From assembly GCA_011065125.1 (NCBI GenBank), contig JAAKFI010000004.1, positions 1 to 58,236 on the forward strand: a stretch of 58,236 nucleotides of DNA, in the 5' to 3' direction. Made by a program: the position numbers and the translations under genes. Source of the DNA: Candidatus Anoxychlamydiales bacterium (GTDB lineage Bacteria > Chlamydiota > Chlamydiia > Chlamydiales > SM23-39). The notes beneath the pieces are model-generated. The model saw only the letters and a program-made list of their open reading frames with translations, searched no databases and was not told where the DNA came from. This document shows positions 37,651 to 51,089 of this stretch, piece after piece; the first letter of the stretch is position 1; each line of letters begins with the position of its first letter.

Positions 37651-39237
37651 ATGAAAAAAATATTTTATTTAATTTTTTGTTTTACTTTTTTTTTAACATC
37701 TTGCGAGAAAAAAATGACTTCTAAAAAAGTTTTAAAAACTGCTTTTCATTCTGATATGTTAAGTATTGATCCTAGAAAAAATGGGGATTATTTTTCATCA
37801 ACTATACAATTCATGGTGTTTAGAGGACTAATGCATGTGAATGAACATAAAGAAATTGCTCCTGCTTTAGCAAAATCATATAGATTATCAAAAGATAAAA
37901 AAACATATACCTTTCATTTAAGAGATGATATTTTTTGGTCTGATGGAACTAAAATAACAGCTTTGGACTTTGAAAAGAGTTTAAAAAAAATACTCTCTCC
38001 TGGCTTCCCATCTTTAACAGCTCAATTACTATATCCTATCAAAAATGCAGAAAAAATAGCTAAAAAAGAACTTACAGCCGATCATTTAGATGTAAAAGCT
38101 TTAGATGAAAAAACTCTTCAAATTAATTTAGAAAATCCAACTCCATATTTTTTATTTTTAACATCTTTTTGTACTTATTTCCCAATACCTTCTCACATAG
38201 AAGAAGAAAATCCAAAATGGCTAGAAGATCCTATTAAATATGTTAAATATTCAGGACCTTTTAAATTAAAAAAATGGAAAAGAGGATCTGAAATCATCCT
38301 TGTTAAAAATGATAAATTTTATGATGCGGATAAGATAGAAATTGATGAAGTTCATATTAGTATTGTAGGAAACGAAATTACAGCCCTTAATATGTACGAA
38401 AAAAATGAAATAGATTTTTTGAGTTCTTTTTTATCTCCTCTTCCAGTTGATTTTTTAGGCACTGTAAAAAAAAGAAATGATTATGATCTATTTGAAATAG
38501 GTGGAAGCTCTTTTTGCGTTTTTAACATAGATAAATATCCTTTCAATAATCAGAATTTAAGAAAAGCATTTTTGCTCTCAATTGATAGAAAATCAATTAC
38601 ACAAAATATAACTCAATTAAATGAAAAAATTGCAACTAGATGTGTACCTCCTCTTTTAACAAGCAATAAAGAGTTATCTTTTTATAAAGACTTTGATATT
38701 GAAAAAGCTAAATTTCATTTTGAAAAAGCTTTAAAAGAATTAAATATAGACAAGAAAGATCTAGATTTAACTTTCACATATGGATCTTATATTATTCATC
38801 GAAAAGAAGCTGAAGCTTTAAAAAGCATGTGGGAAAAATCACTTGGTATTCAAGTTAAATTAATGATGTTTGATGAAGCGTCTTATTTAGCAAAATTACA
38901 TAGACACGATTTTCAAATGGCCCTTAGTAGATTCTTGGTTCATTATAATGATCCTATGAATGTTCTTGAGAGATTTAAATATAAAAAACATCCAAAAAAT
39001 TATGCTAATTTTGAGGATAATACTTTTATTAATATGTTAGACACTGCTAATAAAACTATTAATGAAAATGAAAGAATAAAAATTTTAGAGGATGCTGAAA
39101 GATATTTCATTGACAAAGCTGTTTTAGCACCTATTTATCACTATAATTACGCTATTTTTTCAAAAAATAATGTTAAAGGTATATATGTCGGTCCTATAGG
39201 AGATATTTATATAGAGAATGCCAAAATAATAAAGTAA
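37651..39237 (+). CDS. oppA: Oligopeptide ABC transporter substrate-binding lipoprotein (SBP family 5)
   Basis: Lipobox FFLTSC. DPRK..D, F.LR.D..WSDG, and family-5 SBP length and architecture. Confidence 0.85.
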   Translation: MKKIFYLIFCFTFFLTSCEKKMTSKKVLKTAFHSDMLSIDPRKNGDYFSSTIQFMVFRGLMHVNEHKEIAPALAKSYRLSKDKKTYTFHLRDDIFWSDGTKITALDFEKSLKKILSPGFPSLTAQLLYPIKNAEKIAKKELTADHLDVKALDEKTLQINLENPTPYFLFLTSFCTYFPIPSHIEEENPKWLEDPIKYVKYSGPFKLKKWKRGSEIILVKNDKFYDADKIEIDEVHISIVGNEITALNMYEKNEIDFLSSFLSPLPVDFLGTVKKRNDYDLFEIGGSSFCVFNIDKYPFNNQNLRKAFLLSIDRKSITQNITQLNEKIATRCVPPLLTSNKELSFYKDFDIEKAKFHFEKALKELNIDKKDLDLTFTYGSYIIHRKEAEALKSMWEKSLGIQVKLMMFDEASYLAKLHRHDFQMALSRFLVHYNDPMNVLERFKYKKHPKNYANFEDNTFINMLDTANKTINENERIKILEDAERYFIDKAVLAPIYHYNYAIFSKNNVKGIYVGPIGDIYIENAKIIK

Positions 39238-39247
39238 TAAGGATTGT

Positions 39248-41338
39248 ATGACAGTATATAAACTAGAAAAAGAAATTTATAAAAATGATATTTTTAAAAT
39301 AAAACCATATTTTCATCTTCCAAGTAATTACATCCCCAAAAATATTGACTTATTTATTGAATCTATTGAAAGTCTGCTTTTTGAAATTTTACCAAAGGAC
39401 TTTATAGAACATAAAAATTTATCAAAAGATGATCTTAAAAATATATTTTTGAAATTAAATCAATCAATTCCATTATTTTATACAAGCGAATTTAAAAACC
39501 CCCCATTTTGTCTTTCTTTTTCTCTTCTTTGCTCAGCTGATCATACTCATGGAATAGGTAGATTTATAGGAGATTTGTTAAGTAAATGGTTAATGCCGGG
39601 TAGATCTCTTGCTATTAATTCACATAGATCCTTAATGTTTTCTTTTATTCACAATCCAAATAAAAATTTATATATAAGTGAATATTTCATATCTGTAGAT
39701 GATACAAAACAACTAAATCTATTAAAAAATAATTTAAGCTCATTTATTGAAGAACTTAAAATTATTTTGCTCTCTGTTTATAATGCTAGGCAAATAGTAT
39801 CCACTCAAAAATTGTCACAAAAACAAAAATCAATAATGATTCAAGAAAATTTAGACTCATTATTAGATAAAAATCAAAAAGCTGGAAATTCCGCTTTCGA
39901 TCAAATGCATAATTTTATGGTAAAATTATCCCATGAAAAAAAATTAAGTGAGATAAAAGAAAATTTAGCTTATTTAATGAATAAAAAACCTATCAATATA
40001 GATAGAGATATATTCGATTCAATCCATAATGTATCTTTACTATTCAAAGGTAGCTTTTCTGATGAAAGATCTCCAAAACATATTAGTAGAATAATCTCTT
40101 ATCAATATTTATTTAAAAAATCTTTAAAACAAGTTTTATCCTCAATAAAAACACAAAAAAGACATATTTATTTAAAACTTCTTCAAACGAAATATGCAAA
40201 TAAGGAAAGTACCACGCTTGGTATTTTAATAGTGATGAATCTGCTGCATGAAAATGAACATTTTGAAAAAGGTTATATTTTGGATGCTCTTTCAGGTTTA
40301 ATAAAAGATTATGTATATGTTGATGGATCTTATGTAATTGATTATAGAGATGATAAAATGCTCTCTTTTTATTTAGAAATAGATAAGTTAAATGCAAAAC
40401 GATTTCAAAAAGATGAAATCAATGATATTAGAGATAAATTGCATTTAGAGCTAAAATATAAAATGTTAAATGTAGTGCATCCTATTTTCTTACCAAGAAA
40501 TGAAGAAGAAGTGCTTAGAAACATTATTGTTTTATCAAAACAATTAAAATATGTAAAAGACATACCTCAAGTTATAATTTCATATGATAAACAAACGCAA
40601 AAAGAAATATCTTTTAATATTATATTGCTTAGATTAATTAAAAAAAATACCACCTCTTTAAAAGAAGCATTCTCAAATTCAATTATTAAATCTAAATATT
40701 TTGAAGATGAAGTTAAAATTGTAGGTAAATTAAAAAATAAATATCCCAAAGAAGCAAATATTTTTAGATTAAATATTAAGAAATTCCCTTTTTTAAGAAG
40801 AGACTATTCCCTTGATTTAAGAAAAGCTAGACTCTTTATTGTTAATGAACTTAAAAGATCTATTAAAGATTTTAGAGATTTTAATGGGGGTATGATTTCC
40901 AAACAATGTGAATCTCTAGATGATTTAAAAGCTTCTTTTTGTAAATTAAAAAAACATCAAGAATTCTATTTAGAAAACTTTTTTTATTCCCTAAGACCTG
41001 GGATTATGCAAACTATTTTAGATACATCAATTTTAAAAAACTTTTATTTATTGTTGATGGATCTTATTTCGCAAAGTTTATCTGAAAAAAAATGCACAAT
41101 AAAAACATTAAATTTTAAAAAACATTATTTCATTATTATTGGATCTTCAAGTTCTAAGTTCAAAGAAGAAGTTATTTATTTAGTAAATAAAATCAAACTC
41201 TCATCATTTGAACTTACATCAGCTTCATTCAATACAAATGATGTTTTTACACTTGGGTATATTCTACAATCAGAAGATGAAAAAAAGAAGAAATTACTTC
41301 ACGATACAATAACAGAAGCTATCTCTCATGTCTTTTAG
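39248..41338 (+). CDS. Large hypothetical protein
   Basis: 696-aa uninterrupted ORF starting 10 nt after the oppA stop. No motif recognised. Confidence 0.45.
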   Translation: MTVYKLEKEIYKNDIFKIKPYFHLPSNYIPKNIDLFIESIESLLFEILPKDFIEHKNLSKDDLKNIFLKLNQSIPLFYTSEFKNPPFCLSFSLLCSADHTHGIGRFIGDLLSKWLMPGRSLAINSHRSLMFSFIHNPNKNLYISEYFISVDDTKQLNLLKNNLSSFIEELKIILLSVYNARQIVSTQKLSQKQKSIMIQENLDSLLDKNQKAGNSAFDQMHNFMVKLSHEKKLSEIKENLAYLMNKKPINIDRDIFDSIHNVSLLFKGSFSDERSPKHISRIISYQYLFKKSLKQVLSSIKTQKRHIYLKLLQTKYANKESTTLGILIVMNLLHENEHFEKGYILDALSGLIKDYVYVDGSYVIDYRDDKMLSFYLEIDKLNAKRFQKDEINDIRDKLHLELKYKMLNVVHPIFLPRNEEEVLRNIIVLSKQLKYVKDIPQVIISYDKQTQKEISFNIILLRLIKKNTTSLKEAFSNSIIKSKYFEDEVKIVGKLKNKYPKEANIFRLNIKKFPFLRRDYSLDLRKARLFIVNELKRSIKDFRDFNGGMISKQCESLDDLKASFCKLKKHQEFYLENFFYSLRPGIMQTILDTSILKNFYLLLMDLISQSLSEKKCTIKTLNFKKHYFIIIGSSSSKFKEEVIYLVNKIKLSSFELTSASFNTNDVFTLGYILQSEDEKKKKLLHDTITEAISHVF

Positions 41339-41343
41339 AGATT

Positions 41344-42141
41344 TTAATATATTCTAAATTTTCTACTGTTGTTATTAAATTCTCCTTCAACTCTTTGATC
41401 ATTTTTATCTAATAACTCTAGTTTAATTTTATGAGTTCCTTTTTTAAGACCATAAATATAATAAGGAGTCCATCTTGTTAAAATTCTAGTTATTTTATTA
41501 TCTACTATAACTTTAACTTTATACCCATCTTGTGAAAGTTCACAATTTGAAATATAAAAATCTAATAATATAGGCTCTTGTTCTTTGAATCTCATATAAC
41601 TACTTGGTTCATTATATGTAATATAAGGAGCATCTAAATCTTGATCAATTTTTGGATCTAATGAGTTAACATAAAAGTATGATGAAGCAAATCCCTCACT
41701 ACTTTTTATAGATTCACCAAAAGATCTTGCTAAAAAAACTCTAATAGAATGCTCTCCACTATCTAAACTAAAAGGTATTTTGAATTTATACATAGATTCA
41801 TAATAATTTCCTTCCTCATCAAATGGAGCTATGCTAGGACCTGCTTTTGCAAAGTATGACTCATTATCTATTATAACATGTATACTTTGACCTAATCTTG
41901 AATTTGCAAGATCATTTGTTCTTGGCACTTGTGATCTATTACCAATTGAAAATCCCCTTACTCTAAGTTGAACTTTAACGTCTGAGCTAGTTTCCGTTTT
42001 ATTAGTTTTAGGAAAAACAATTGAAATAGCTGCATTTTCTGACATTGGTGATTCATTTACAGATATTATCTGAACTAAATCACTTGCAAAACCACTAATG
42101 GATAAAAAAGATAATAATACAGTAAAAATAACCTTTTTCAT
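41344..42141 (-). CDS. Secreted protein with two beta-sandwich-like repeats (DUF4399-like pattern)
   Basis: Signal peptide MKKVIFTVLLSFLSISGFA, with the start chosen at 42141. The pattern repeats: GQSIHVIIDN...GEHSIRVFL, then GYKVKVIVDN...GTHKIKLELL. Confidence 0.45.
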   Translation of the reverse strand: MKKVIFTVLLSFLSISGFASDLVQIISVNESPMSENAAISIVFPKTNKTETSSDVKVQLRVRGFSIGNRSQVPRTNDLANSRLGQSIHVIIDNESYFAKAGPSIAPFDEEGNYYESMYKFKIPFSLDSGEHSIRVFLARSFGESIKSSEGFASSYFYVNSLDPKIDQDLDAPYITYNEPSSYMRFKEQEPILLDFYISNCELSQDGYKVKVIVDNKITRILTRWTPYYIYGLKKGTHKIKLELLDKNDQRVEGEFNNNSRKFRIY

Positions 42142-42297
42142 AACAAACCTCTTTTTTTTGGATAATTGCATTTTTTTTTATCCTATGCAATATTTTTTTA
42201 AATGATTTTTATAAATAATAATTATATAAAATCCTTATTGATTTAAGTTAAGCATTTTAATAAATACTATAAGCTCTTAAATACTAACTATATGAAA

Positions 42298-43965: not shown

Positions 43966-44673
43966 ATGGATCACATTTCAATAGATTCCTTACCAAGTGA
44001 AATAATTTTTAATTTAAAAGAACATCATTTCACAATTGAAAAAAAGCCAATAGTGCATAAGCCTATATTTGAATTTGAAGATTTTAAAATTAAAGCTATA
44101 GAAAAATTTCCAAATAGAAAAGATCTTTTATATTGTGCAAATCAAATTAAAAATTTGTTCATAGAGGGATTTAAATGGGAAGATCTAGCTTTTATAATGA
44201 ATTATGCTAATAAATTTATAGATCAATATAACAACATATCTAATTATAAAAAAAGACAAGGAATTATAACTATAATTAATCTATTAATTGATATAACAGA
44301 TACACCTTATCTACCTGATATAATTTTTGATTCTATCTTTAAAATGATTGCTGAAAATATAGTTTATTTAATTTTACCAGATCCCATGGAAGACTCCTCT
44401 GAAAACGCATCAAACTTAAATGTTGATGATTTTGCAAATGATTTATTAAAAGAATATAAAGTAATAGATTTCAAAGATCTATCTGAAATTACAAATAAAT
44501 CAATTTCTTTTGCTAAGAAACACGATCTACCTAAAGAGAAAAAAATTGAAATAGCTACTTATCTAGTTGATTCGATTATTGACAATGCAAATACACCTTA
44601 TATTCAAAATTATTATACTGATGGGATTATGAAAGATATTTCTTATGGGTTTATTATAGAACTAATAGAGTAG
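43966..44673 (+). CDS. Hypothetical protein with an internal duplication
   Basis: 235 aa. Res ~99-136 and ~193-235 repeat the pattern I..L(I/V)D....TPY.......D.I.K.I......LI. Confidence 0.4.
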   Translation: MDHISIDSLPSEIIFNLKEHHFTIEKKPIVHKPIFEFEDFKIKAIEKFPNRKDLLYCANQIKNLFIEGFKWEDLAFIMNYANKFIDQYNNISNYKKRQGIITIINLLIDITDTPYLPDIIFDSIFKMIAENIVYLILPDPMEDSSENASNLNVDDFANDLLKEYKVIDFKDLSEITNKSISFAKKHDLPKEKKIEIATYLVDSIIDNANTPYIQNYYTDGIMKDISYGFIIELIE

Positions 44674-44716: not shown

Positions 44717-45391
44717 ATGTTTTTAAAAAATAACTTTTTTATGCAAAAAAAAAATATTGAAATACCTTTATCAAATAATGTTTTAAATGGAGAATTAACT
44801 CTTGTTGATAATCCAATTGGGATAGCTATCTTTGCACATGGCAGTGGCAGTTCTAGATTTAGCAAAAGAAATCAATTAGTTGCTAAAATATTAAACGAAC
44901 AAAAAATATCTACATTACTATTCGATTTACTAACAAATGAAGAAGAGGAATTAGACAAAGAAACTTTAGAATATAGATTTAACATTCAACTTTTATCTAA
45001 AAGGTTGCTTACAGCCACTAAATGGATTCAAAGCAACCCTAATATTAAAAATTTAAAGATAGGCTATTTTGGCGCTTCTACAGGAGCTGCAGCGGCCTTG
45101 ATTGCAGCAAGCTCTATACCAAATGAAATAAAAGCTATAGTTTCAAGAGGAGGTAGACCTGATTTAGCAAATTCATATTTATCTCAAATATCTTCCCCTA
45201 CTTTATTAATAGTGGGAGAATTAGATTTTACAGTCTTAAAGTTGAATGAAGAAGCATATAATCAAATAAATTGTGAAAAAGATATAAAAATTATTAAAAA
45301 TGCAACTCATGTATTTGAGGAAGGTCATTCACTAGAAGAAGTTGCAATGCTTGCATCAAAATGGTTTGAAAAATATTTTTTATCTAAATAA
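44717..45391 (+). CDS. Dienelactone hydrolase-family alpha/beta hydrolase
   Basis: FAHGSGSSRFSKRNQLVAKIL...TLLFDLLT and GYFGASTGAAAAL nucleophile elbow. This is the family that occurs fused to the PRTase domain in other bacteria. Confidence 0.8.
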   Translation: MFLKNNFFMQKKNIEIPLSNNVLNGELTLVDNPIGIAIFAHGSGSSRFSKRNQLVAKILNEQKISTLLFDLLTNEEEELDKETLEYRFNIQLLSKRLLTATKWIQSNPNIKNLKIGYFGASTGAAAALIAASSIPNEIKAIVSRGGRPDLANSYLSQISSPTLLIVGELDFTVLKLNEEAYNQINCEKDIKIIKNATHVFEEGHSLEEVAMLASKWFEKYFLSK

Positions 45392-46263
45392 GTATTTTCA
45401 AAATCTTTAATTATTTTTTCTGATTCGTTTAATAAAACAACCAACTTTTCTGGATAGCGTTTCATTAAATATCTTCTCAGCGATTTTGTTGATCTAATTA
45501 TTTCTTTTTTAAAAAAATAAGGCTCTTTTAATTTTTCATCCAAATAAGTTCTTCCGACATCGATAGTAATTACTTTATTATTTAAAACAGCATAGTTAGA
45601 ATGCCTTCTATCTAAATCGCTATCAATTACTAAAGCCTTTGCTCTTTTTTCTATGACATTTAAGTAATCTTTGATCAAGTGATCTTTAAGAGAATCCTCT
45701 GCTTTATCTAGTGCCTCATAAAAAATAAAATTTGCTTTTTTTTGTAAGATAAATACAACCTCATCTAAATCAACTGAATTTTTTCTATTTAACTTATCAA
45801 AAAAGTTAAGTGTTTTATTAAAACAATTTGTTCGATAAGGGTGAACATATACTAGAGCAGCTTCATCTCTAAAATTATCAAAAGCTAAATCTAAAGCCCT
45901 GCAGTCTTCTAAAAATCTTTTTTTTCTTCTTTCATAGTGTTTTTTTATATATTTTGAATTAAAGACATTATTCTTTAAAAGCTCTACATCATATCTTCTA
46001 CTGTTCAAAAACTTAATTACATATTTATCATCGTCAGATACGAAAACAAAGGATTGCCTGCCTCTAGCTAGATACTTAAAGTTTTGATCTAAAATAGAGC
46101 TGATTTCATCAATATTTTCAGTTTTTTTATTTGAAAAAACTAAAGGCTTTTGAATTAGCCTTAAACTAAATCCATCAGTTCTTATATAACCTAAAAAAAT
46201 TAATAATATAAGTATTTTTAAAGTTACAACATAAACTAAAATCTTATTTTTTATATTCATCAA
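45325..46263 (-). CDS. Signal-anchored protein-kinase-like (PKL) fold protein, paralog 1
   Basis: N-terminal TM helix. FKYLARGRQSFVFVSDDDKYVIKFL (Gly-loop-like plus an invariant Lys strand), LVYVH, FILQKKA, DSDLDRRHSN, and VITIDVG (DFG-like). Confidence 0.5.
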   Translation of the reverse strand: MMNIKNKILVYVVTLKILILLIFLGYIRTDGFSLRLIQKPLVFSNKKTENIDEISSILDQNFKYLARGRQSFVFVSDDDKYVIKFLNSRRYDVELLKNNVFNSKYIKKHYERRKKRFLEDCRALDLAFDNFRDEAALVYVHPYRTNCFNKTLNFFDKLNRKNSVDLDEVVFILQKKANFIFYEALDKAEDSLKDHLIKDYLNVIEKRAKALVIDSDLDRRHSNYAVLNNKVITIDVGRTYLDEKLKEPYFFKKEIIRSTKSLRRYLMKRYPEKLVVLLNESEKIIKDFENTYLDKKYFSNHFDASIATSSSE

Positions 46264-47077
46264 ATCTATCTATGTAATATGTATTTAATTTTATATTGTT
46301 TTTTATTTCATCAAATAGTCTATAAGTATTCTTTTTAAACATATCATATTCACTTATTTTTTTATTATCTTTAAAATGAAAACTTCCTATATCAAAAATA
46401 ATTAATTTATTTTCATGAATTCCTATATTTTTTAAATGATAATCATCATATGCAAAACCAGTTTTATCAATATCTTTTATTAAATTAAAATATAATAAAA
46501 TTAGATTTTTTTTATAGTCATTCGAAATATATTTATTATGAAAAATATCATAAATGCATTGAACTTTCTTTTGAATTACAAAATATGATCTATCTAAATT
46601 TATATTGTGTTTTCTATGAAGCTTATAATAGACATTTAAAAATTTATTTGATTTTGTATTATTTAGATGAACATATATTAAAGCTGTTTGATCTTTTAAA
46701 TTTTCATATACTTGAAAAATATTTTTTTTGAGATTATGAAATTTAAGTTTTTGATAAAAATCCTTCCTTTGATGTTTATTTGAAAATAATTTTAAAAATT
46801 TGTAAAAAAAACGATCTTGTCTGTAGGATTTTAAAAATTTTATAACATAGTTTTTATCTTCGCTTATAAATACATAAAATTGACTTCCTTGCGATAAATA
46901 ATAAAACTTTTGTTTTAAAATATGATCATAACTTTTTAAATCATCTTCAATAAAAACGGTATTTTCAATATTAATTTTATTTTGGGAAAAATTAAAAACT
47001 TTTTTAGAAGAACGAGCTAAAACAATACTCATTAAAACGATAATTAATATTTTTGCAAAAGATTGGAAAACTTTCAT
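46244..47077 (-). CDS. Signal-anchored protein-kinase-like (PKL) fold protein, paralog 2
   Basis: FYYLSQGSQFYVFISEDKNYVIKFL, LIYVH, FVIQKKV, DDYHLKNIG, and IIFDIGSF. Overlaps paralog 1 by 20 nt. Confidence 0.5.
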   Translation of the reverse strand: MKVFQSFAKILIIVLMSIVLARSSKKVFNFSQNKINIENTVFIEDDLKSYDHILKQKFYYLSQGSQFYVFISEDKNYVIKFLKSYRQDRFFYKFLKLFSNKHQRKDFYQKLKFHNLKKNIFQVYENLKDQTALIYVHLNNTKSNKFLNVYYKLHRKHNINLDRSYFVIQKKVQCIYDIFHNKYISNDYKKNLILLYFNLIKDIDKTGFAYDDYHLKNIGIHENKLIIFDIGSFHFKDNKKISEYDMFKKNTYRLFDEIKNNIKLNTYYIDRFDEYKK

Positions 47078-47964
47078 TTTAAATTAGATTTTTTACTTTT
47101 CTCATATATTTTTTCATCTAAAAAAACTGTTAAGTCAGGACTGTATTTGTTTGTCCATCTCTTATAATATTTAATAAATTTATTAAACTCCCTTTCATAT
47201 ATAAATTTATTATTTAAATTCTCTATTTTTTTAAAACTTCCAAGGTCTGTAAAAATAACAGTATTCTCAATAATCCCTGCATTTTTTATACAATTATAAT
47301 CAGAATTTATAAATCCTTTTTTATAAATAGAATCTGTTAAATTTATAAATGAAAGTGTGGTTTTTTGAAGGATAGTTTTATTATTTTTGTTGTTTTGTAA
47401 ATGCTTACTTAATGAATCCGCTTTTTTTTGCAGTATAAACCCATAATCATCTAAATTAATTTTATATTTTTGATTGAATTTATCTAATAGTGTAACTTTT
47501 TTATTTAAGTTATTTGTTTGATTTAAATGGATATATAAAATTTTAGTTTCATCTTTTAAGTAATCAAATGCTATTTTGTAACTATTAATTGATTGTAGAA
47601 ACAGCTTTTCTTTATGCTTTTTTATTTTATTATAATAATTATCTAAAAAATACTTTGAGTGCAGATTATCAAGCCAAAAAGGCACTTTATATCTATGAAA
47701 TCTAATAAATTTTAAAACATAATTTTCATCTTCGCTAATAAAAACATATGTTTGACAACCTTTAGATAAATATTTAAATCTTTGAGATATAATTTCATCA
47801 ATTTCATTAGATTGATCTTCGTTTTGGATCTTATTATTATAAAAAGAAACAAAATTAATTTTGTCAATTCTAAAACCATCTGTATATAACTGATAAAATT
47901 TTATGCAAAGACTGCTTATAACAATAAGAGATAAAATTTTGATTGAAATTATAAACTTTTTCAT
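47074..47964 (-). CDS. Signal-anchored protein-kinase-like (PKL) fold protein, paralog 3
   Basis: FKYLSKGCQTYVFISEDENYVLKFI, ILYIH, FILQKKA, SDYNCIKNAG, and VIFTDLGSF. Overlaps paralog 2 by 4 nt. Confidence 0.5.
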   Translation of the reverse strand: MKKFIISIKILSLIVISSLCIKFYQLYTDGFRIDKINFVSFYNNKIQNEDQSNEIDEIISQRFKYLSKGCQTYVFISEDENYVLKFIRFHRYKVPFWLDNLHSKYFLDNYYNKIKKHKEKLFLQSINSYKIAFDYLKDETKILYIHLNQTNNLNKKVTLLDKFNQKYKINLDDYGFILQKKADSLSKHLQNNKNNKTILQKTTLSFINLTDSIYKKGFINSDYNCIKNAGIIENTVIFTDLGSFKKIENLNNKFIYEREFNKFIKYYKRWTNKYSPDLTVFLDEKIYEKSKKSNLK

Positions 47965-48050
47965 AAATAAAATTTTTATTTACTAATGGGTGTTTTAACA
48001 ATATAATAACATAAAATAAGAATTCTAATATATTTTTTTTTGGAGGTTAT

Positions 48051-48593
48051 ATGTTTTTTGATGCTTTTAACCCAGATACAGAAATTGATAAAAAACCAAG
48101 CGAAGTTATTTATCATGTAAATTTAAATAAATGTTCATTTTTTGCTAAAATGATAAAAATACCTAAAATGAATACTGCAGAAAATCTTTCTTATCAAGAT
48201 CTTCCAAGGACTCTAGAAGATGAAACTAAAATAAATGAATTAATTACAACTTTAGGTTCTCATGGAAAAATAGATCTACTATTTAAACATTACAGTAGAT
48301 TAAATAAAATTGGTGATGAACTTAGATATTTACATCCTTTTAAATTCTTAGGTTATATCTTTTCTCAACCTAATTTAAAAAATTATATGAAAGATGTTTT
48401 TGAAGACTATTTTAAAAGAACAAATTTTGTAAAAGATTTTGCTAAAACATGTGATATGTATGATTTAAGAAATCAACTTTACAAGTATTTAGATAACTTT
48501 TCTAATGAAGTTAATGTTCCCTCTGAAAAATTAAAAAAGTATGTTGATAAAAAAGATTGGAAAGGTCTTTTAAAATGCTTAGTATACTATTGA
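48051..48593 (+). CDS. Hypothetical protein
   Basis: 180-aa ORF with a GGAGG RBS upstream and no recognised motif. It overlaps the convergent glycosyltransferase stop by 7 nt. Confidence 0.4.
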   Translation: MFFDAFNPDTEIDKKPSEVIYHVNLNKCSFFAKMIKIPKMNTAENLSYQDLPRTLEDETKINELITTLGSHGKIDLLFKHYSRLNKIGDELRYLHPFKFLGYIFSQPNLKNYMKDVFEDYFKRTNFVKDFAKTCDMYDLRNQLYKYLDNFSNEVNVPSEKLKKYVDKKDWKGLLKCLVYY

Positions 48594-49879
48594 TTAATTT
48601 TAGTTATCTCAGTTTTAAAAAGAGTTGGTGTTATTAATTCAGCTCCCATTTTCTCCATCATGTACATTGCATTTCCAGCTTCCCAAACAGGTATTCCTTT
48701 TAAAAGATTTTTTAAAGAGTAATTTTCATGTTTAGATTTGTATTCAGAATGAACAAATTTTTTAGCATTAGATACCGTCATAAGTTCAATTGCTGTTTGT
48801 CCACCACTTCTTGTAATTGTCATATCACTTCTATAAAACAGTCTTGCTATTACATCTTCTTTTTGAAAAGACATGAGTATAATCGAAATATTTTTAGGAT
48901 AGTCTTTTACTTTATTTAAGTGTTTGTAGATTTTATTCATCAATCCATCATTGTAATCAGCACAAAAAGCAAATAAATGTATTTTTTTATTGAAATTCTT
49001 TTCTTGTACAATTTCTACTAAATTTTTTATATAATTTTTCGTACCTTCAAATGATGGCTGAGAGCCTAGTAAAAGTGTAATTAGATAATCATTTTTTTCA
49101 ATTAAAAATTCTAATTGATTTTCAAATTCGATAATATTCAATGAACCTTTTTGAATTATTTTTTTTATTACTTCTTTTTCTTGAGAAGATTTTGTTTTTA
49201 AATGAATCTTAAATGAGTCTAAAACAACTTCTTTATGAATATAATTTTGGAATTCACATCTAATAGGATAACTTAAATAACAAACCTTATTTAAATCAAT
49301 TCCACAATGCTTTTTCCAAAAATCTATATCTGACTCATTTTTATTTAAAAGTGGCTCAACAGTAGAAATGTTTATATATTTTTTATCAGTTTTCGATAGT
49401 CTTTTCACATTTTTGAAAAAATGAATAGCCTTCGTTGTTGGTAGATCTACTATAATTCTTTGAAGAGATACATTCTTATTTGATATTTTATTATATATTC
49501 TAATTGCTTTTATAATAGCAGAACATCCAAGAGGTTGAGTATCTATAATTACATCTATATCTTCTTTTTTTAGAATTAAAAAAGTTTTTAAAAATATTTT
49601 GGGCCAAAAAATAAATTCAGCAAGTCTTTGAGAAAATCTATTTCCTAAAAAATGTTGCATTGCAACTTTTCCGGTTCTTTGTGCATTATTCCATGAATTT
49701 ACTCCAAAATGACCAAACAAACCACCTATCCATTCAAGCAATAAATCAACTTTTATAACTTTTGCATTTGGTTTTTCTTTTTTAATTATTTGTTGTTGAG
49801 CTTCTGCTGCTTGTAATAACCCACCACCACCTGAAGAAGTAATTATTAGAAAATTATTCCTTAGCTTTTTTTCAGTCAT
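48587..49879 (-). CDS. GT-B glycosyltransferase, MGDG-synthase/UgtP/MurG-like (GT28)
   Basis: N-terminal IITSSGGGGLLQAAEA (compare GGGH.asAeA of MGDG synthases). C-terminal TRSGGQTAIELM (G-G-x-T-x-x-E). I prefer the start at 49879, which has an AAGGAG RBS. The ORF track extends the frame to 49969. Confidence 0.65.
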   Translation of the reverse strand: MTEKKLRNNFLIITSSGGGGLLQAAEAQQQIIKKEKPNAKVIKVDLLLEWIGGLFGHFGVNSWNNAQRTGKVAMQHFLGNRFSQRLAEFIFWPKIFLKTFLILKKEDIDVIIDTQPLGCSAIIKAIRIYNKISNKNVSLQRIIVDLPTTKAIHFFKNVKRLSKTDKKYINISTVEPLLNKNESDIDFWKKHCGIDLNKVCYLSYPIRCEFQNYIHKEVVLDSFKIHLKTKSSQEKEVIKKIIQKGSLNIIEFENQLEFLIEKNDYLITLLLGSQPSFEGTKNYIKNLVEIVQEKNFNKKIHLFAFCADYNDGLMNKIYKHLNKVKDYPKNISIILMSFQKEDVIARLFYRSDMTITRSGGQTAIELMTVSNAKKFVHSEYKSKHENYSLKNLLKGIPVWEAGNAMYMMEKMGAELITPTLFKTEITKINQ

Positions 49880-50033
49880 TGAAACTCCTTTTACTATATT
49901 AATTTTCTTTCTATATATATTATTATTGAATGTCAATTCTAATTTTGTTTTATTAATATTTTTTTTCATTTTTAAAAGGTTTATTGCTTTTATTTATTAA
50001 ATTATTTAGTAATTAAATTAAGGATGAAGAAAA

Positions 50034-51089
50034 ATGAAAAGTTTTAAAAACACTCTATTTAGCCTATTTTTTGGCTCAGCTATAGTTTTATTATCAATTG
50101 TCTCATTTCTATGGTACAACAACTATCCACCCCTTTCAAAGTTTTCTAATCCAGATATTATAAAGATTACGTCTATTAAAACAAAAAAAAATATAAATAA
50201 AGATATAAAAATTGCATCATACAATATTCATTTTGGTATAGGACACAATGACAAAACGCTATTAAATGGTTATCAAAATTTTATAGATAGATTAAATGAA
50301 ATATCTCAAATATTAAAAAAAATAGATGCTGATGTAGTATTACTTCAAGAAGTTGATTTCAATTCAAAAAGATCACATAACATTGATCAAGCTTTGTACT
50401 TAGCAAAAAAAAGCGAATATAAATATGTTGTTAAACACACAACTTTAAAGCAAAAAATCCATCCATTTTTTCATAATATTTTTGGAAATATAGATCATGG
50501 CATGTGCATTTTATCTAAATATCCAATTACTTCATCTAGCGCTTTAGTATTTGAACATTATCCTAAAATTCCATTTTTTTTAAAATGGTTATATTCTCCT
50601 CATGGAGCATTAGAATGTGCAATTTCATTTCTTGAAAAAAACATAAAAGTTATTAATCTACATTTAGAACCATGGTCGAAATCACAAAGATTAATGCAAA
50701 TTGAAGAAATAAAAAATTATTTTTTTAATGATAAAAAAATTCCACTAATTGTTGGAGGAGATTTTAATACACTTCCTTTAGAACTACTGAAAAGAAATAC
50801 CTATCCTTTTCAAGAAGCTCCTTTTTTTGTCAATAAAGAAGAGTTAAATATAAAAAATGAAAAAACTATTGAAGTTATAAAAAAATTATCTTTTAGCGAA
50901 GCTGTTCCAATTAAATTATACTTAAATGATTCAAAAAAAGCTTTCACTTATCCCGCTATAAACCCAAAAGTTAAACTTGATTATATTTTTGCAGGATATA
51001 GAGCCAAAGTAAAATACGGATATATATATAAAGATGCCTTTATTGCATCGGATCATTTGCCTATTGTTGCAGAAATTAAAATAAATTAG
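50034..51089 (+). CDS. Membrane-anchored endonuclease/exonuclease/phosphatase (EEP) family phosphodiesterase
   Basis: N-terminal TM helix, then IASYNIH, VVLLQEVD, GGDFNT and SDHLPIVAEI catalytic motifs. Confidence 0.8.
   Translation: MKSFKNTLFSLFFGSAIVLLSIVSFLWYNNYPPLSKFSNPDIIKITSIKTKKNINKDIKIASYNIHFGIGHNDKTLLNGYQNFIDRLNEISQILKKIDADVVLLQEVDFNSKRSHNIDQALYLAKKSEYKYVVKHTTLKQKIHPFFHNIFGNIDHGMCILSKYPITSSSALVFEHYPKIPFFLKWLYSPHGALECAISFLEKNIKVINLHLEPWSKSQRLMQIEEIKNYFFNDKKIPLIVGGDFNTLPLELLKRNTYPFQEAPFFVNKEELNIKNEKTIEVIKKLSFSEAVPIKLYLNDSKKAFTYPAINPKVKLDYIFAGYRAKVKYGYIYKDAFIASDHLPIVAEIKIN

Follow-up and report, generated by a model that had tools for sequence, protein, structure and literature searches.

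Three predicted signal-anchored, protein-kinase-like paralogs in an operon-like array of a Candidatus Anoxychlamydiales genome, members of a family found in environmental Chlamydiota

The window analysed here is a whole stretch of 58,236 nucleotides (nt) of Candidatus Anoxychlamydiales bacterium DNA (GenBank assembly GCA_011065125.1, contig JAAKFI010000004.1, positions 1 to 58,236). Positions 45325-47964 hold, on the minus strand, three consecutive and overlapping open reading frames (ORFs) of 312, 277 and 296 amino acids (aa), which an earlier note, made from the sequence alone, had described as signal-anchored paralogs with protein-kinase-like motifs. Their coordinates, lengths and overlaps of 4 nt and 20 nt were all found exactly as that note had given them. 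The 296-aa ORF comes first in the direction of transcription and is therefore called gene 1. Gene 1 (47074..47964, minus strand) encodes an N-terminal anchor and a kinase-like domain, scores 297 bits against the hidden Markov model (HMM) of the family and is the best conserved of the three paralogs. Gene 2 (46244..47077, minus strand, 277 aa, 192 bits) overlaps gene 1 by 4 nt in an ATGA-type junction; its best external match is only 38% identical, and it is the fastest-evolving paralog. Gene 3 (45325..46263, minus strand, 267 bits) encodes 312 aa from a TTG start or 311 aa from an alternative ATG start at 46260, which is the one used by the database entry P0001. Its overlap with gene 2 is 20 nt from the TTG and 17 nt from the ATG start, and its 3' end overlaps a convergent dienelactone-hydrolase-like ORF (44717-45391) by 67 nt.

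The three window paralogs are 28-32% identical pairwise and their three-way alignment has 48 invariant columns, among which fall all of the motifs that had been listed as shared, in the same order, by the three proteins. With 192-297 bits against the family profile and hundreds of homologs, the ORFs are real genes, and the homologs led us to reject the possibility that they are chance ORFs.

Gene 1 was modelled with AlphaFold2 from an alignment of 94 sequences (A2), which gave a mean predicted local distance difference test score (pLDDT) of 94.6 and a predicted template modelling score (pTM) of 0.90. The model consists of an N-terminal helix (residues 2-27), a short linker of low confidence and a compact bilobal domain of about 235 residues. 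The domain opens with a beta1-beta3 unit at 62-87 (strands 62-68, 72-77 and 82-87) and a helical region at 89-140, which includes the alphaC region (108-140). Beta4 (142-146), an inserted beta-hairpin (156-170) and beta5 with the hinge (176-181) follow. Helices at 185-215 (alphaE, 196-215) then lead to strands beta6-9 at 218-246, of which 218-220, 229-232 and 235-238 lie around the catalytic loop and the Asp-x-Gly (DxG) motif, and three helices form the C-terminus. About 55 residues follow the DxG motif and the model has no activation segment, so that the proteins are of the minimal eukaryotic-like-kinase type, like RIO and the lipopolysaccharide (LPS) kinases, and not of the eukaryotic protein kinase (ePK) type.

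Searching the PDB with this model by Foldseek gave 60 matches at E<=1e-3, and the results reported here rest on the best 50 of these 60, all of which are kinase-fold proteins. The leading matches are the kinase of WbdD (4azs, E 6.2e-5), AceK (3eps), MSMEG_1954 (7cz2), RIO1 (1zp9 and 1zth) and RIO2 (1zar), followed by ePKs. The Foldseek search against BFVD returned 65 matches with E<=1e-3, and among the matches listed almost all are viral protein kinases. Structure prediction, which the earlier note had suggested as a check of its proposal, thus returned a bilobal, protein-kinase-like model with kinase-fold neighbours throughout the PDB matches listed.

Residue conservation was counted over 270 non-redundant members aligned to the family HMM and is given in gene 1 numbering. 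G69 in the beta1-beta2 turn (YLSKGCQ), K85 in beta3 (strand 82-87, YVLKF) and Q179 in the hinge are conserved in 100% of the members. The metal-binding D240 of the DxG motif is found in 99%, the catalytic-loop residues N228 and D222 in 98% and 95%, and G242 of the DxG motif in 94%. At position 139, which directly precedes beta4, 86% of the members have an acidic residue. Besides these there are near-invariant residues that are specific to the family, namely F31 (in the TDGF motif; 97%), Q61, F75, S77, D79 (99%), D161, F176 and H146. On the minus strand of the window, the nucleotide-binding N-lobe core of gene 1, from G69 through K85, corresponds to 47710..47760 according to the AlphaFold2 strands and conservation. 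The catalytic loop D222-x5-N228 together with D240-L-G242 corresponds, by conservation and the model, to 47239..47301; in the model, strands 218-220 and 229-232 enclose the loop, and DxG comes after strand 235-238.

The set of Gly, Lys, Gln, Asp, Asn and Asp-x-Gly is kept in all three window paralogs. Aligned to the family HMM with hmmalign, gene 2 has its beta3 lysine K80 at 46838-46840 and its catalytic loop D212..N217 with D229-I-G231 at 46385..46444, while gene 3 has K84 at 46012-46014 and D216..N223 (SDLDRRHSN) with D235-V-G237 at 45553..45618, all on the minus strand. Gene 2 keeps G64, K80, Q169, D212, N217, D229 and G231. It alone is without the TDGF motif, and it has Q130 in place of E139 and Y151 in place of D161. 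Most of the motif assignments made by eye in the earlier note agree with the model, that is the Gly turn, the beta3 lysine, the catalytic loop between beta6 and beta7, the DxG after beta8 and the hinge-like F(I/V)(I/L)QKK, which the model places as beta5 plus hinge. The L(V/I)Y(V/I)H motif, also taken for hinge-like, is beta4 instead, and the proposed D-x(4-5)-N element holds for gene 1 (x5) and gene 2 (x4) but is x6 in gene 3 when counted from the aligned Asp.

The Lys, Asp, Asn and Asp positions, whose conservation the note had proposed to check, are 95-100% conserved in the 270 homologs. For the same reason we rejected the reading of the proteins as pseudokinases: the full phosphotransfer set is conserved, which argues for active enzymes. 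From these residues we infer that the proteins bind ATP-Mg and transfer phosphate, and we predict them to be active. That this is a family with the kinase fold and a competent active site is, in our view, very likely.

The N-terminal helix of gene 1 (residues 2-27, MKK-FIISIKILSLIVISSLCI-KFYQLY, followed by T-D-G-F31; 47884..47961, minus strand) is single and continuous in the model, with a pLDDT of 97-98, and reaches a Kyte-Doolittle hydropathy of 2.18 in a 19-residue window. Gene 3 has a hydrophobic stretch at residues 8-27 (ILVYVVTLKILILLIFLGYI, then R-T-D-G-F32; 46183..46242, minus strand) with a Kyte-Doolittle window of 2.56. In gene 2 the hydrophobic stretch, read from the sequence, covers residues 10-21 (ILIIVLMSIVLA, then RSSKK; 47015..47050, minus strand), and by a heuristic judgement only this N-terminus appears shorter and more signal-peptide-like than those of genes 1 and 3.

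Hydropathy and charges were surveyed in 264 members with an intact N-terminus. The Phe of the TDGF motif is at median position 31, the N-flank is short and net positive in 97% of the members, and the median length of the uncharged run is 15 residues (interquartile range 12-18). A Kyte-Doolittle value above 1.6 in a 19-residue window N-terminal of TDGF was found in 78% of the members. The juxtamembrane consensus is G-(L/V)-E-R-(F/L)-C-H-K-x-T-D-G-F, of which genes 1 and 3 have the TDGF. Glu or Asp is frequent where residue -1 of a signal peptidase site would have to be, which gives most members the look of uncleaved anchors. Lipobox-like N-termini occur in 12 of the 264 members, and a minority has N-termini that resemble cleavable signals, for example P0099 (...IYAHA|VSS, which replaces both the anchor and TDGF). 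P0099 is one of three metagenomic proteins of 501-564 aa (with P0098 and P0100) in which two complete kinase-like domains stand behind one N-terminal signal. Searching the long and fused members against Pfam revealed no informative domain fusions; the long forms are these tandem double-kinase proteins.

The TDGF segment packs on the catalytic domain in the gene 1 model. Because the helix at 2-27 is continuous and TDGF docks on the domain, the catalytic domain would be expected near the membrane. The hydrophobic N-terminal segment, claimed as a signal anchor for the three paralogs, is a feature of the family, and its charge distribution, with a positive N-flank, favours an N-in/C-out orientation by the positive-inside rule. 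On these grounds the proteins are likely to be membrane-anchored, and we lean, with less assurance, towards a kinase domain that faces the periplasm. An Inc-type effector reading was rejected, since there is a single hydrophobic segment at the extreme N-terminus and not a bilobed one.

To define the size of the family, a full HMM scan was made over 1.84 billion cluster representatives, with clusters at 50% identity. It found 2,648 clusters at E<=1e-3, of which 1,997 are at E<=1e-30 and about 200 lie between 1e-10 and 1e-3. The small number in this last zone indicates that the family is large yet sharply bounded at the sequence level. The homologs are called "hypothetical protein" and come from Anoxychlamydiales, Parachlamydiales, Rhabdochlamydiaceae, Simkaniaceae and unclassified Chlamydiota. 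The sole exception in naming is UniRef100_A0A0F9H597 (P0265), which is 50% identical to gene 1 and carries the automatic name "Protein kinase domain-containing protein", an independent assignment that agrees with ours. We found no description of the family in the literature.

A further scan for loci, with a pattern from the 3-sequence alignment and one genome per GTDB species, gave 71 loci. All 71 are from chlamydial metagenome-assembled genomes (MAGs) or symbionts, including Parachlamydiaceae HS-T3, Neptunochlamydia and a Xenoturbella-associated chlamydia. Occurrence outside Chlamydiota was considered for loci labelled "Verrucomicrobiae" or "Acidobacteriota" and was rejected, as the genes around them share synteny with Rhabdochlamydia or Chlamydiae MAGs, at 50-92% identity. 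Gene 1 had no tblastn match among 72,556 plasmids. As far as sampled, the family is confined to environmental Chlamydiota. A separate case of labelling is the MAG titled "Chlamydia trachomatis isolate MsH-30apr19-142", whose contig CAMDHO010000014.1 (36% GC) encodes a 311-aa family member; a DUF8085-like neighbour ties this locus to the lineage of the window, and the species label looks wrong.

The 209 family ORFs detected are spread across 75 loci; of 74 loci that were counted, 42 contain same-strand tandem runs of 2-8 diverged paralogs. Neighbouring genes overlap at 82% of 100 tandem junctions, in keeping with their being co-transcribed and translationally coupled. The identity between paralogs of the same locus has a median of 33% and reaches 58% at most. 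There are six other three-gene arrays, in Anoxychlamydiales and Parachlamydiales (L002, L004-L007 and L026), in which the first and third genes best match window genes 1 and 3, with 47-50% identity for gene 1 and 36-40% for gene 3; the middle gene evolves fastest in the three-gene arrays. These positional orthologs indicate that the triplication is older than the split of the lineages, and together with the low identity within loci they bear out the earlier suggestion of old duplications. Recent amplification was rejected, as the identity within a locus never exceeds 58%. Positional orthologs, low paralog identity and arrays in conserved synteny support a family that appears ancient and vertically inherited, and one operon of ancient paralogs, joined by operon-like overlaps, is the best explanation of the three window genes.

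Another kind of array was seen in the Rhabdochlamydiaceae MAG LVE1205-5 (L069, 8073-12266), where nine family ORFs stand in a row and most are fragments of 62-140 aa. This array is either decaying to pseudogenes or split by indel errors in the assembly.

Synteny links the window to the Anoxychlamydiales MAG K940chlam1 (L002). Both have in the same order a DUF1761 gene, a gene for an Exo_endo_phos protein, one for a protein of about 450 aa, one for a DUF8085 protein, the three kinases, and genes for a 235-aa protein, a phosphoribosyltransferase and BrkB/YihY. The 180-aa protein beside the trio (48051-48593, plus strand) has a homolog with Pfam DUF8085 in K940chlam1, is found beside arrays in 11 loci and has some homologs with a signal peptide. 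Next to it lies a 460-aa protein (48587-49969, minus strand), which stands beside the kinase trio in 9 loci and has no N-terminal signal. It has no match in Pfam, NCBIfam or the PDB sequences; its N-terminal ...TSSGGGGLLQAAEA... motif may resemble that of glycosyltransferases of the GT-B/MGDG-synthase type. The protein encoded at 50034-51089 (plus strand) belongs to the endonuclease/exonuclease/phosphatase family (Pfam: PF03372, E 1e-18), has an N-terminal hydrophobic segment and is syntenic in Anoxychlamydiales and Parachlamydiales loci; it may be a phosphodiesterase or phosphatase that is exported. The 235-aa protein (43966-44673, plus strand), which has no family match, is conserved on the downstream side of the trio in 9 loci. 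It looks internally duplicated (...DITDTPYLPDIIFD... and ...DNANTPYIQNYYTD...).

The most frequent neighbour of the arrays is a 275-aa exported protein (41344-42171, minus strand), which is within 4 kb of arrays in 28 of 75 loci from several chlamydial orders and directly upstream on the same strand in four of them (L009, L012, L018 and L048). Chlamydiae have over 650 homologs of it, 45-55% identical and all annotated as hypothetical. Its AlphaFold2 model (pLDDT 92) comprises a signal helix and two immunoglobulin/fibronectin type III-like sandwiches, and the protein has weak matches to DUF6130. This neighbour fits an envelope setting and points to no pathway. It is preceded by an OppA-like solute-binding protein (Pfam: PF00496) and a 696-aa hypothetical protein (37651-41338, plus strand), and the block of these three genes also flanks kinase arrays in Simkaniaceae loci, which indicates that the synteny of this chromosomal region is deeply conserved.

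The GC content is 25.6% over the window and 19.4% over 46001-48000, which covers genes 1 and 2 of the array. The related loci that were fetched have 28-51% GC, all above the window, so this organism is unusually AT-rich for its group. Scanning window DNA of 20-25% GC for promoters was uninformative, with 32 promoter-like sites against 34 expected, and the single terminator-like match falls inside gene 3. No tRNA genes were found in the 58-kb window.

We read the three genes as one operon of ancient, Chlamydiota-specific paralogs that encode signal-anchored minimal kinases, probably active and probably facing the periplasm, and give this reading a probability of roughly 0.6. Each protein would have a basic N-terminus, a hydrophobic helix that serves as an uncleaved Sec signal anchor, a juxtamembrane motif lying on the catalytic domain, and the bilobal domain of about 235 residues. 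Phosphotransfer would be carried out by the Gly of the glycine-rich loop (G-loop), the beta3 Lys, the acidic residue before beta4, the hinge Gln, the catalytic Asp, the Mg-binding Asn and the Asp of DxG. The positive N-flank would keep the N-terminus in the cytoplasm, so that the kinase domain would lie at the periplasmic side of the inner membrane, close to the bilayer. More speculatively, different paralogs of an array may phosphorylate different membrane-proximal or envelope substrates, such as head groups of lipids or glycans, or exported proteins. The fuller picture, in which a phylum-specific, expanded set of periplasmic kinases would run on host ATP and phosphorylate envelope lipids, glycans or proteins, each paralog with its own substrate, is put forward as tentative, and any particular class of substrate would be a doubtful choice.

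Several observations weigh against the reading of the proteins as active, periplasm-facing kinases. Neither Pfam nor NCBIfam gives a match for the three paralogs, and a Pfam search at E<=10 with 104 members (the 94 of the alignment and 10 further orthologs) found no kinase family. PDB profile searches with the 3- and 94-sequence alignments at E<=10 returned no kinase, the top matches, KduI, TCTP and DrrA, being insignificant, and hhalign of the A2 alignment gave probabilities of 0.3% for E. coli WaaP and 0.1% for WaaY. In structure, the template modelling (TM) score normalised to the query is 0.29-0.40, with a root mean square deviation of 5-15 Å, against every solved kinase in the PDB search, and the best TM scores normalised to the target are 0.45-0.51; with values this low throughout, the family lies at about the same distance from each solved kinase family. 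Foldseek returned no residue-level alignments, so the motifs were equated by their place in the secondary structure and by motif logic. Within the motifs, there is just one Gly in the G-loop, His-x-Asp is absent from the catalytic loop, the Asp-Asn spacing varies (x4-x6) where the canonical loop has a fixed x4, and the candidate acidic residue of alphaC (position 139), a Gln in gene 2, has a conservation of only 86%.

The neighbouring genes give no clue to a substrate, those not assigned above having no informative Pfam or NCBIfam match. As to the topology, a transmembrane helix would usually be longer than the hydrophobic run, and the 15 residues C-terminal of it are also mildly basic (+1.3 vs +1.7 for the N-flank). 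WbdD, the neighbour with the best E-value, and the LPS kinases act on the cytoplasmic face of the membrane, and the bacterial periplasm normally holds no ATP. Chlamydiae, however, import host ATP via nucleotide transporters of the inner membrane, so ATP must cross their periplasm. An ATP-dependent kinase outside the cytoplasm would therefore be feasible in these bacteria, and the usual objection is removed.

Fold and motifs support membership of the proteins in the protein-kinase-like (PKL) superfamily, and the searches agree with the earlier note in that the proteins fit no named kinase family. For Pkinase (Pfam: PF00069) and PK_Tyr_Ser-Thr (Pfam: PF07714) there was no match at E<=10 among the 104 members and no DFG...APE segment. 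RIO (Pfam: PF01163) had no Pfam match and was absent from the PDB profile search at E<=10, and for Kdo/WaaP (Pfam: PF06293) the 104 members gave no match and hhalign was insignificant. No match at E<=10 was found among these members for APH/choline kinase (Pfam: PF01636), UbiB/ABC1 (Pfam: PF03109), AceK (Pfam: PF06315), Fam20C (Pfam: PF06702) or CotH (Pfam: PF08757), and AceK and the UbiB-like ATPase are remote fold neighbours only. We regard the proteins as a new family of a superfamily already known, and its sole earlier recognition that we found is the single automatic UniRef name.

Among the known kinases, RIO1 and RIO2, which are archaeal and eukaryotic atypical kinases/ATPases, resemble the chlamydial proteins in having a compact kinase domain of about 230-250 residues with the beta3 Lys, the catalytic Asp...Asn and the metal-binding Asp, and no activation segment or large substrate-binding subdomains. 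They also have the highest target-normalised TM scores among the PDB matches listed (0.45-0.48; 1zp9 and 1zth). The RIO proteins, however, are soluble cytoplasmic ribosome-biogenesis factors without an anchor and show no detectable sequence relation to the chlamydial family, which differs in a helical insertion, some 45 residues long, between beta3 and the alphaC region, the hairpin insert at 156-170, an invariant hinge Gln and D-x5-N where RIO has D-x4-N. The best Foldseek E-value (6.2e-5, probability 1.0) belongs to WbdD (4azs), the chain terminator of the E. coli O9a polymannose, a bacterial membrane-associated eukaryotic-like kinase that acts on a lipid-linked glycan. WbdD is a bifunctional and cytoplasmic methyltransferase-kinase with a C-terminal coiled coil and membrane-binding helix, whereas the chlamydial proteins have one domain and an N-terminal anchor; its query-normalised TM score with the gene 1 model is 0.37 and the sequence identity 14%.

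WaaP, WaaY and KdkA (Pfam: PF06293) are likewise small bacterial PKL kinases at the membrane. The hhalign alignment with WaaY superposes the D...N...ID segments but is statistically insignificant, the WaaP type is outside the best 50 of the 60 structural matches, and the chlamydial catalytic loop is without the HGD motif. Fam20C, Four-jointed and CotH share the architecture only, an N-terminal signal or type II anchor with an atypical extracytosolic kinase domain. They have much larger, disulfide-stabilised domains and are not in the best 50 of the 60 fold matches, and the chlamydial proteins match none of them in Pfam; no conserved Cys pair was seen in the 270-member alignment. The likeness to CotH, and to the Fam20 and WaaP types that the earlier note had suggested, is architectural at most.

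If the kinase domain were on the other side of the membrane, the proteins would be cytoplasm-facing, membrane-tethered small-molecule kinases that act on a lipid-linked glycan, an LPS core sugar or a lipid, as WbdD, WaaP/WaaY and KdkA do, with the paralogs modifying different positions. ATP is available in the cytoplasm, the kinase domain of WbdD is the top PDB fold match by E-value, and the insignificant hhalign alignment with WaaY overlays two catalytic segments. The rigid juxtamembrane motif implies a membrane-proximal substrate, basic residues are conserved in the C-flank (R at -9 and K/R at -5 and -4 relative to F31), and the 460-aa cytoplasmic protein adjoins the trio in 9 loci of the window lineage. 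We nevertheless consider this arrangement unlikely, since the net positive N-flank of 97% of the members points to N-in/C-out by the positive-inside rule and some N-termini are like cleavable signals or those of lipoproteins. For the LPS-kinase form of the idea there is moreover no Kdo/WaaP Pfam match in the 104 members, an hhalign probability below 1% and no WaaP in the best 50 of the 60 fold matches, and arrays of up to 8 paralogs exceed the known sets of LPS-core kinases. Export beyond the bacterial envelope, through Sec and type II secretion or in vesicles, would make the proteins effectors, type II-anchored kinases in the inclusion lumen or host membranes that resemble Fam20/Fjx or the effector kinases of Legionella. 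Massive lineage-specific expansion (2,648 clusters, arrays of 2-8) is typical of host-interaction gene families in environmental chlamydiae, the N-termini are of Sec type, and a signal anchor with a kinase domain is the architecture of Golgi kinases. The duplications, however, are old, with positional orthologs kept across orders rather than rapid turnover and no pair in a locus more than 58% identical. Retention in the bacterial inner membrane would follow from the N-termini, most of which look uncleaved, and Fam20 and CotH structures are outside the best 50 of the 60 fold matches, so that we regard export as improbable.

About equally improbable is that the kinase fold serves another chemistry, either as an ATPase or chaperone-like switch, as in RIO, UbiB/COQ8 and the mycobacterial MABP-1 homolog, or as a nucleotidyl or other transferase, as in SelO and SidJ. 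The closest structures include RIO1/2 and MSMEG_1954, a macrolide-binding mycobacterial ATPase (PMC8696161). The C-lobe of about 55 residues after DxG, with no activation segment, offers no obvious platform for a protein substrate, and Q61, S77, D79, D161 and Q179 are without counterpart in canonical kinases. Against this, the catalytic Asp, the usual base for the acceptor hydroxyl, is conserved in 95% and together with the Asn and the DxG Asp makes up a signature of phosphotransfer and not of an AMPylase with flipped nucleotide.

If the reading as signal-anchored, periplasm-facing kinases is true, the three genes represent a previously undescribed family of the PKL superfamily with 2,648 clusters and no Pfam or NCBIfam model, which is found in one phylum of obligate intracellular bacteria, with several diverged copies, arrayed like operons, in most of the genomes sampled. 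About 2,600 clusters could then shift from "hypothetical" to "atypical kinase-like, signal-anchored". Even with a domain that faces the cytoplasm, the proteins would add to chlamydial envelope biogenesis a new class of kinases, tethered to the membrane and acting on small molecules or glycans. With a domain that faces the periplasm, they would form a periplasmic system of ATP-dependent phosphorylation that would be impossible for free-living bacteria. The family would thus offer an entry point to the roles of the "hypothetical" envelope proteins of chlamydiae and to periplasmic ATP-dependent chemistry in energy-parasitic bacteria.

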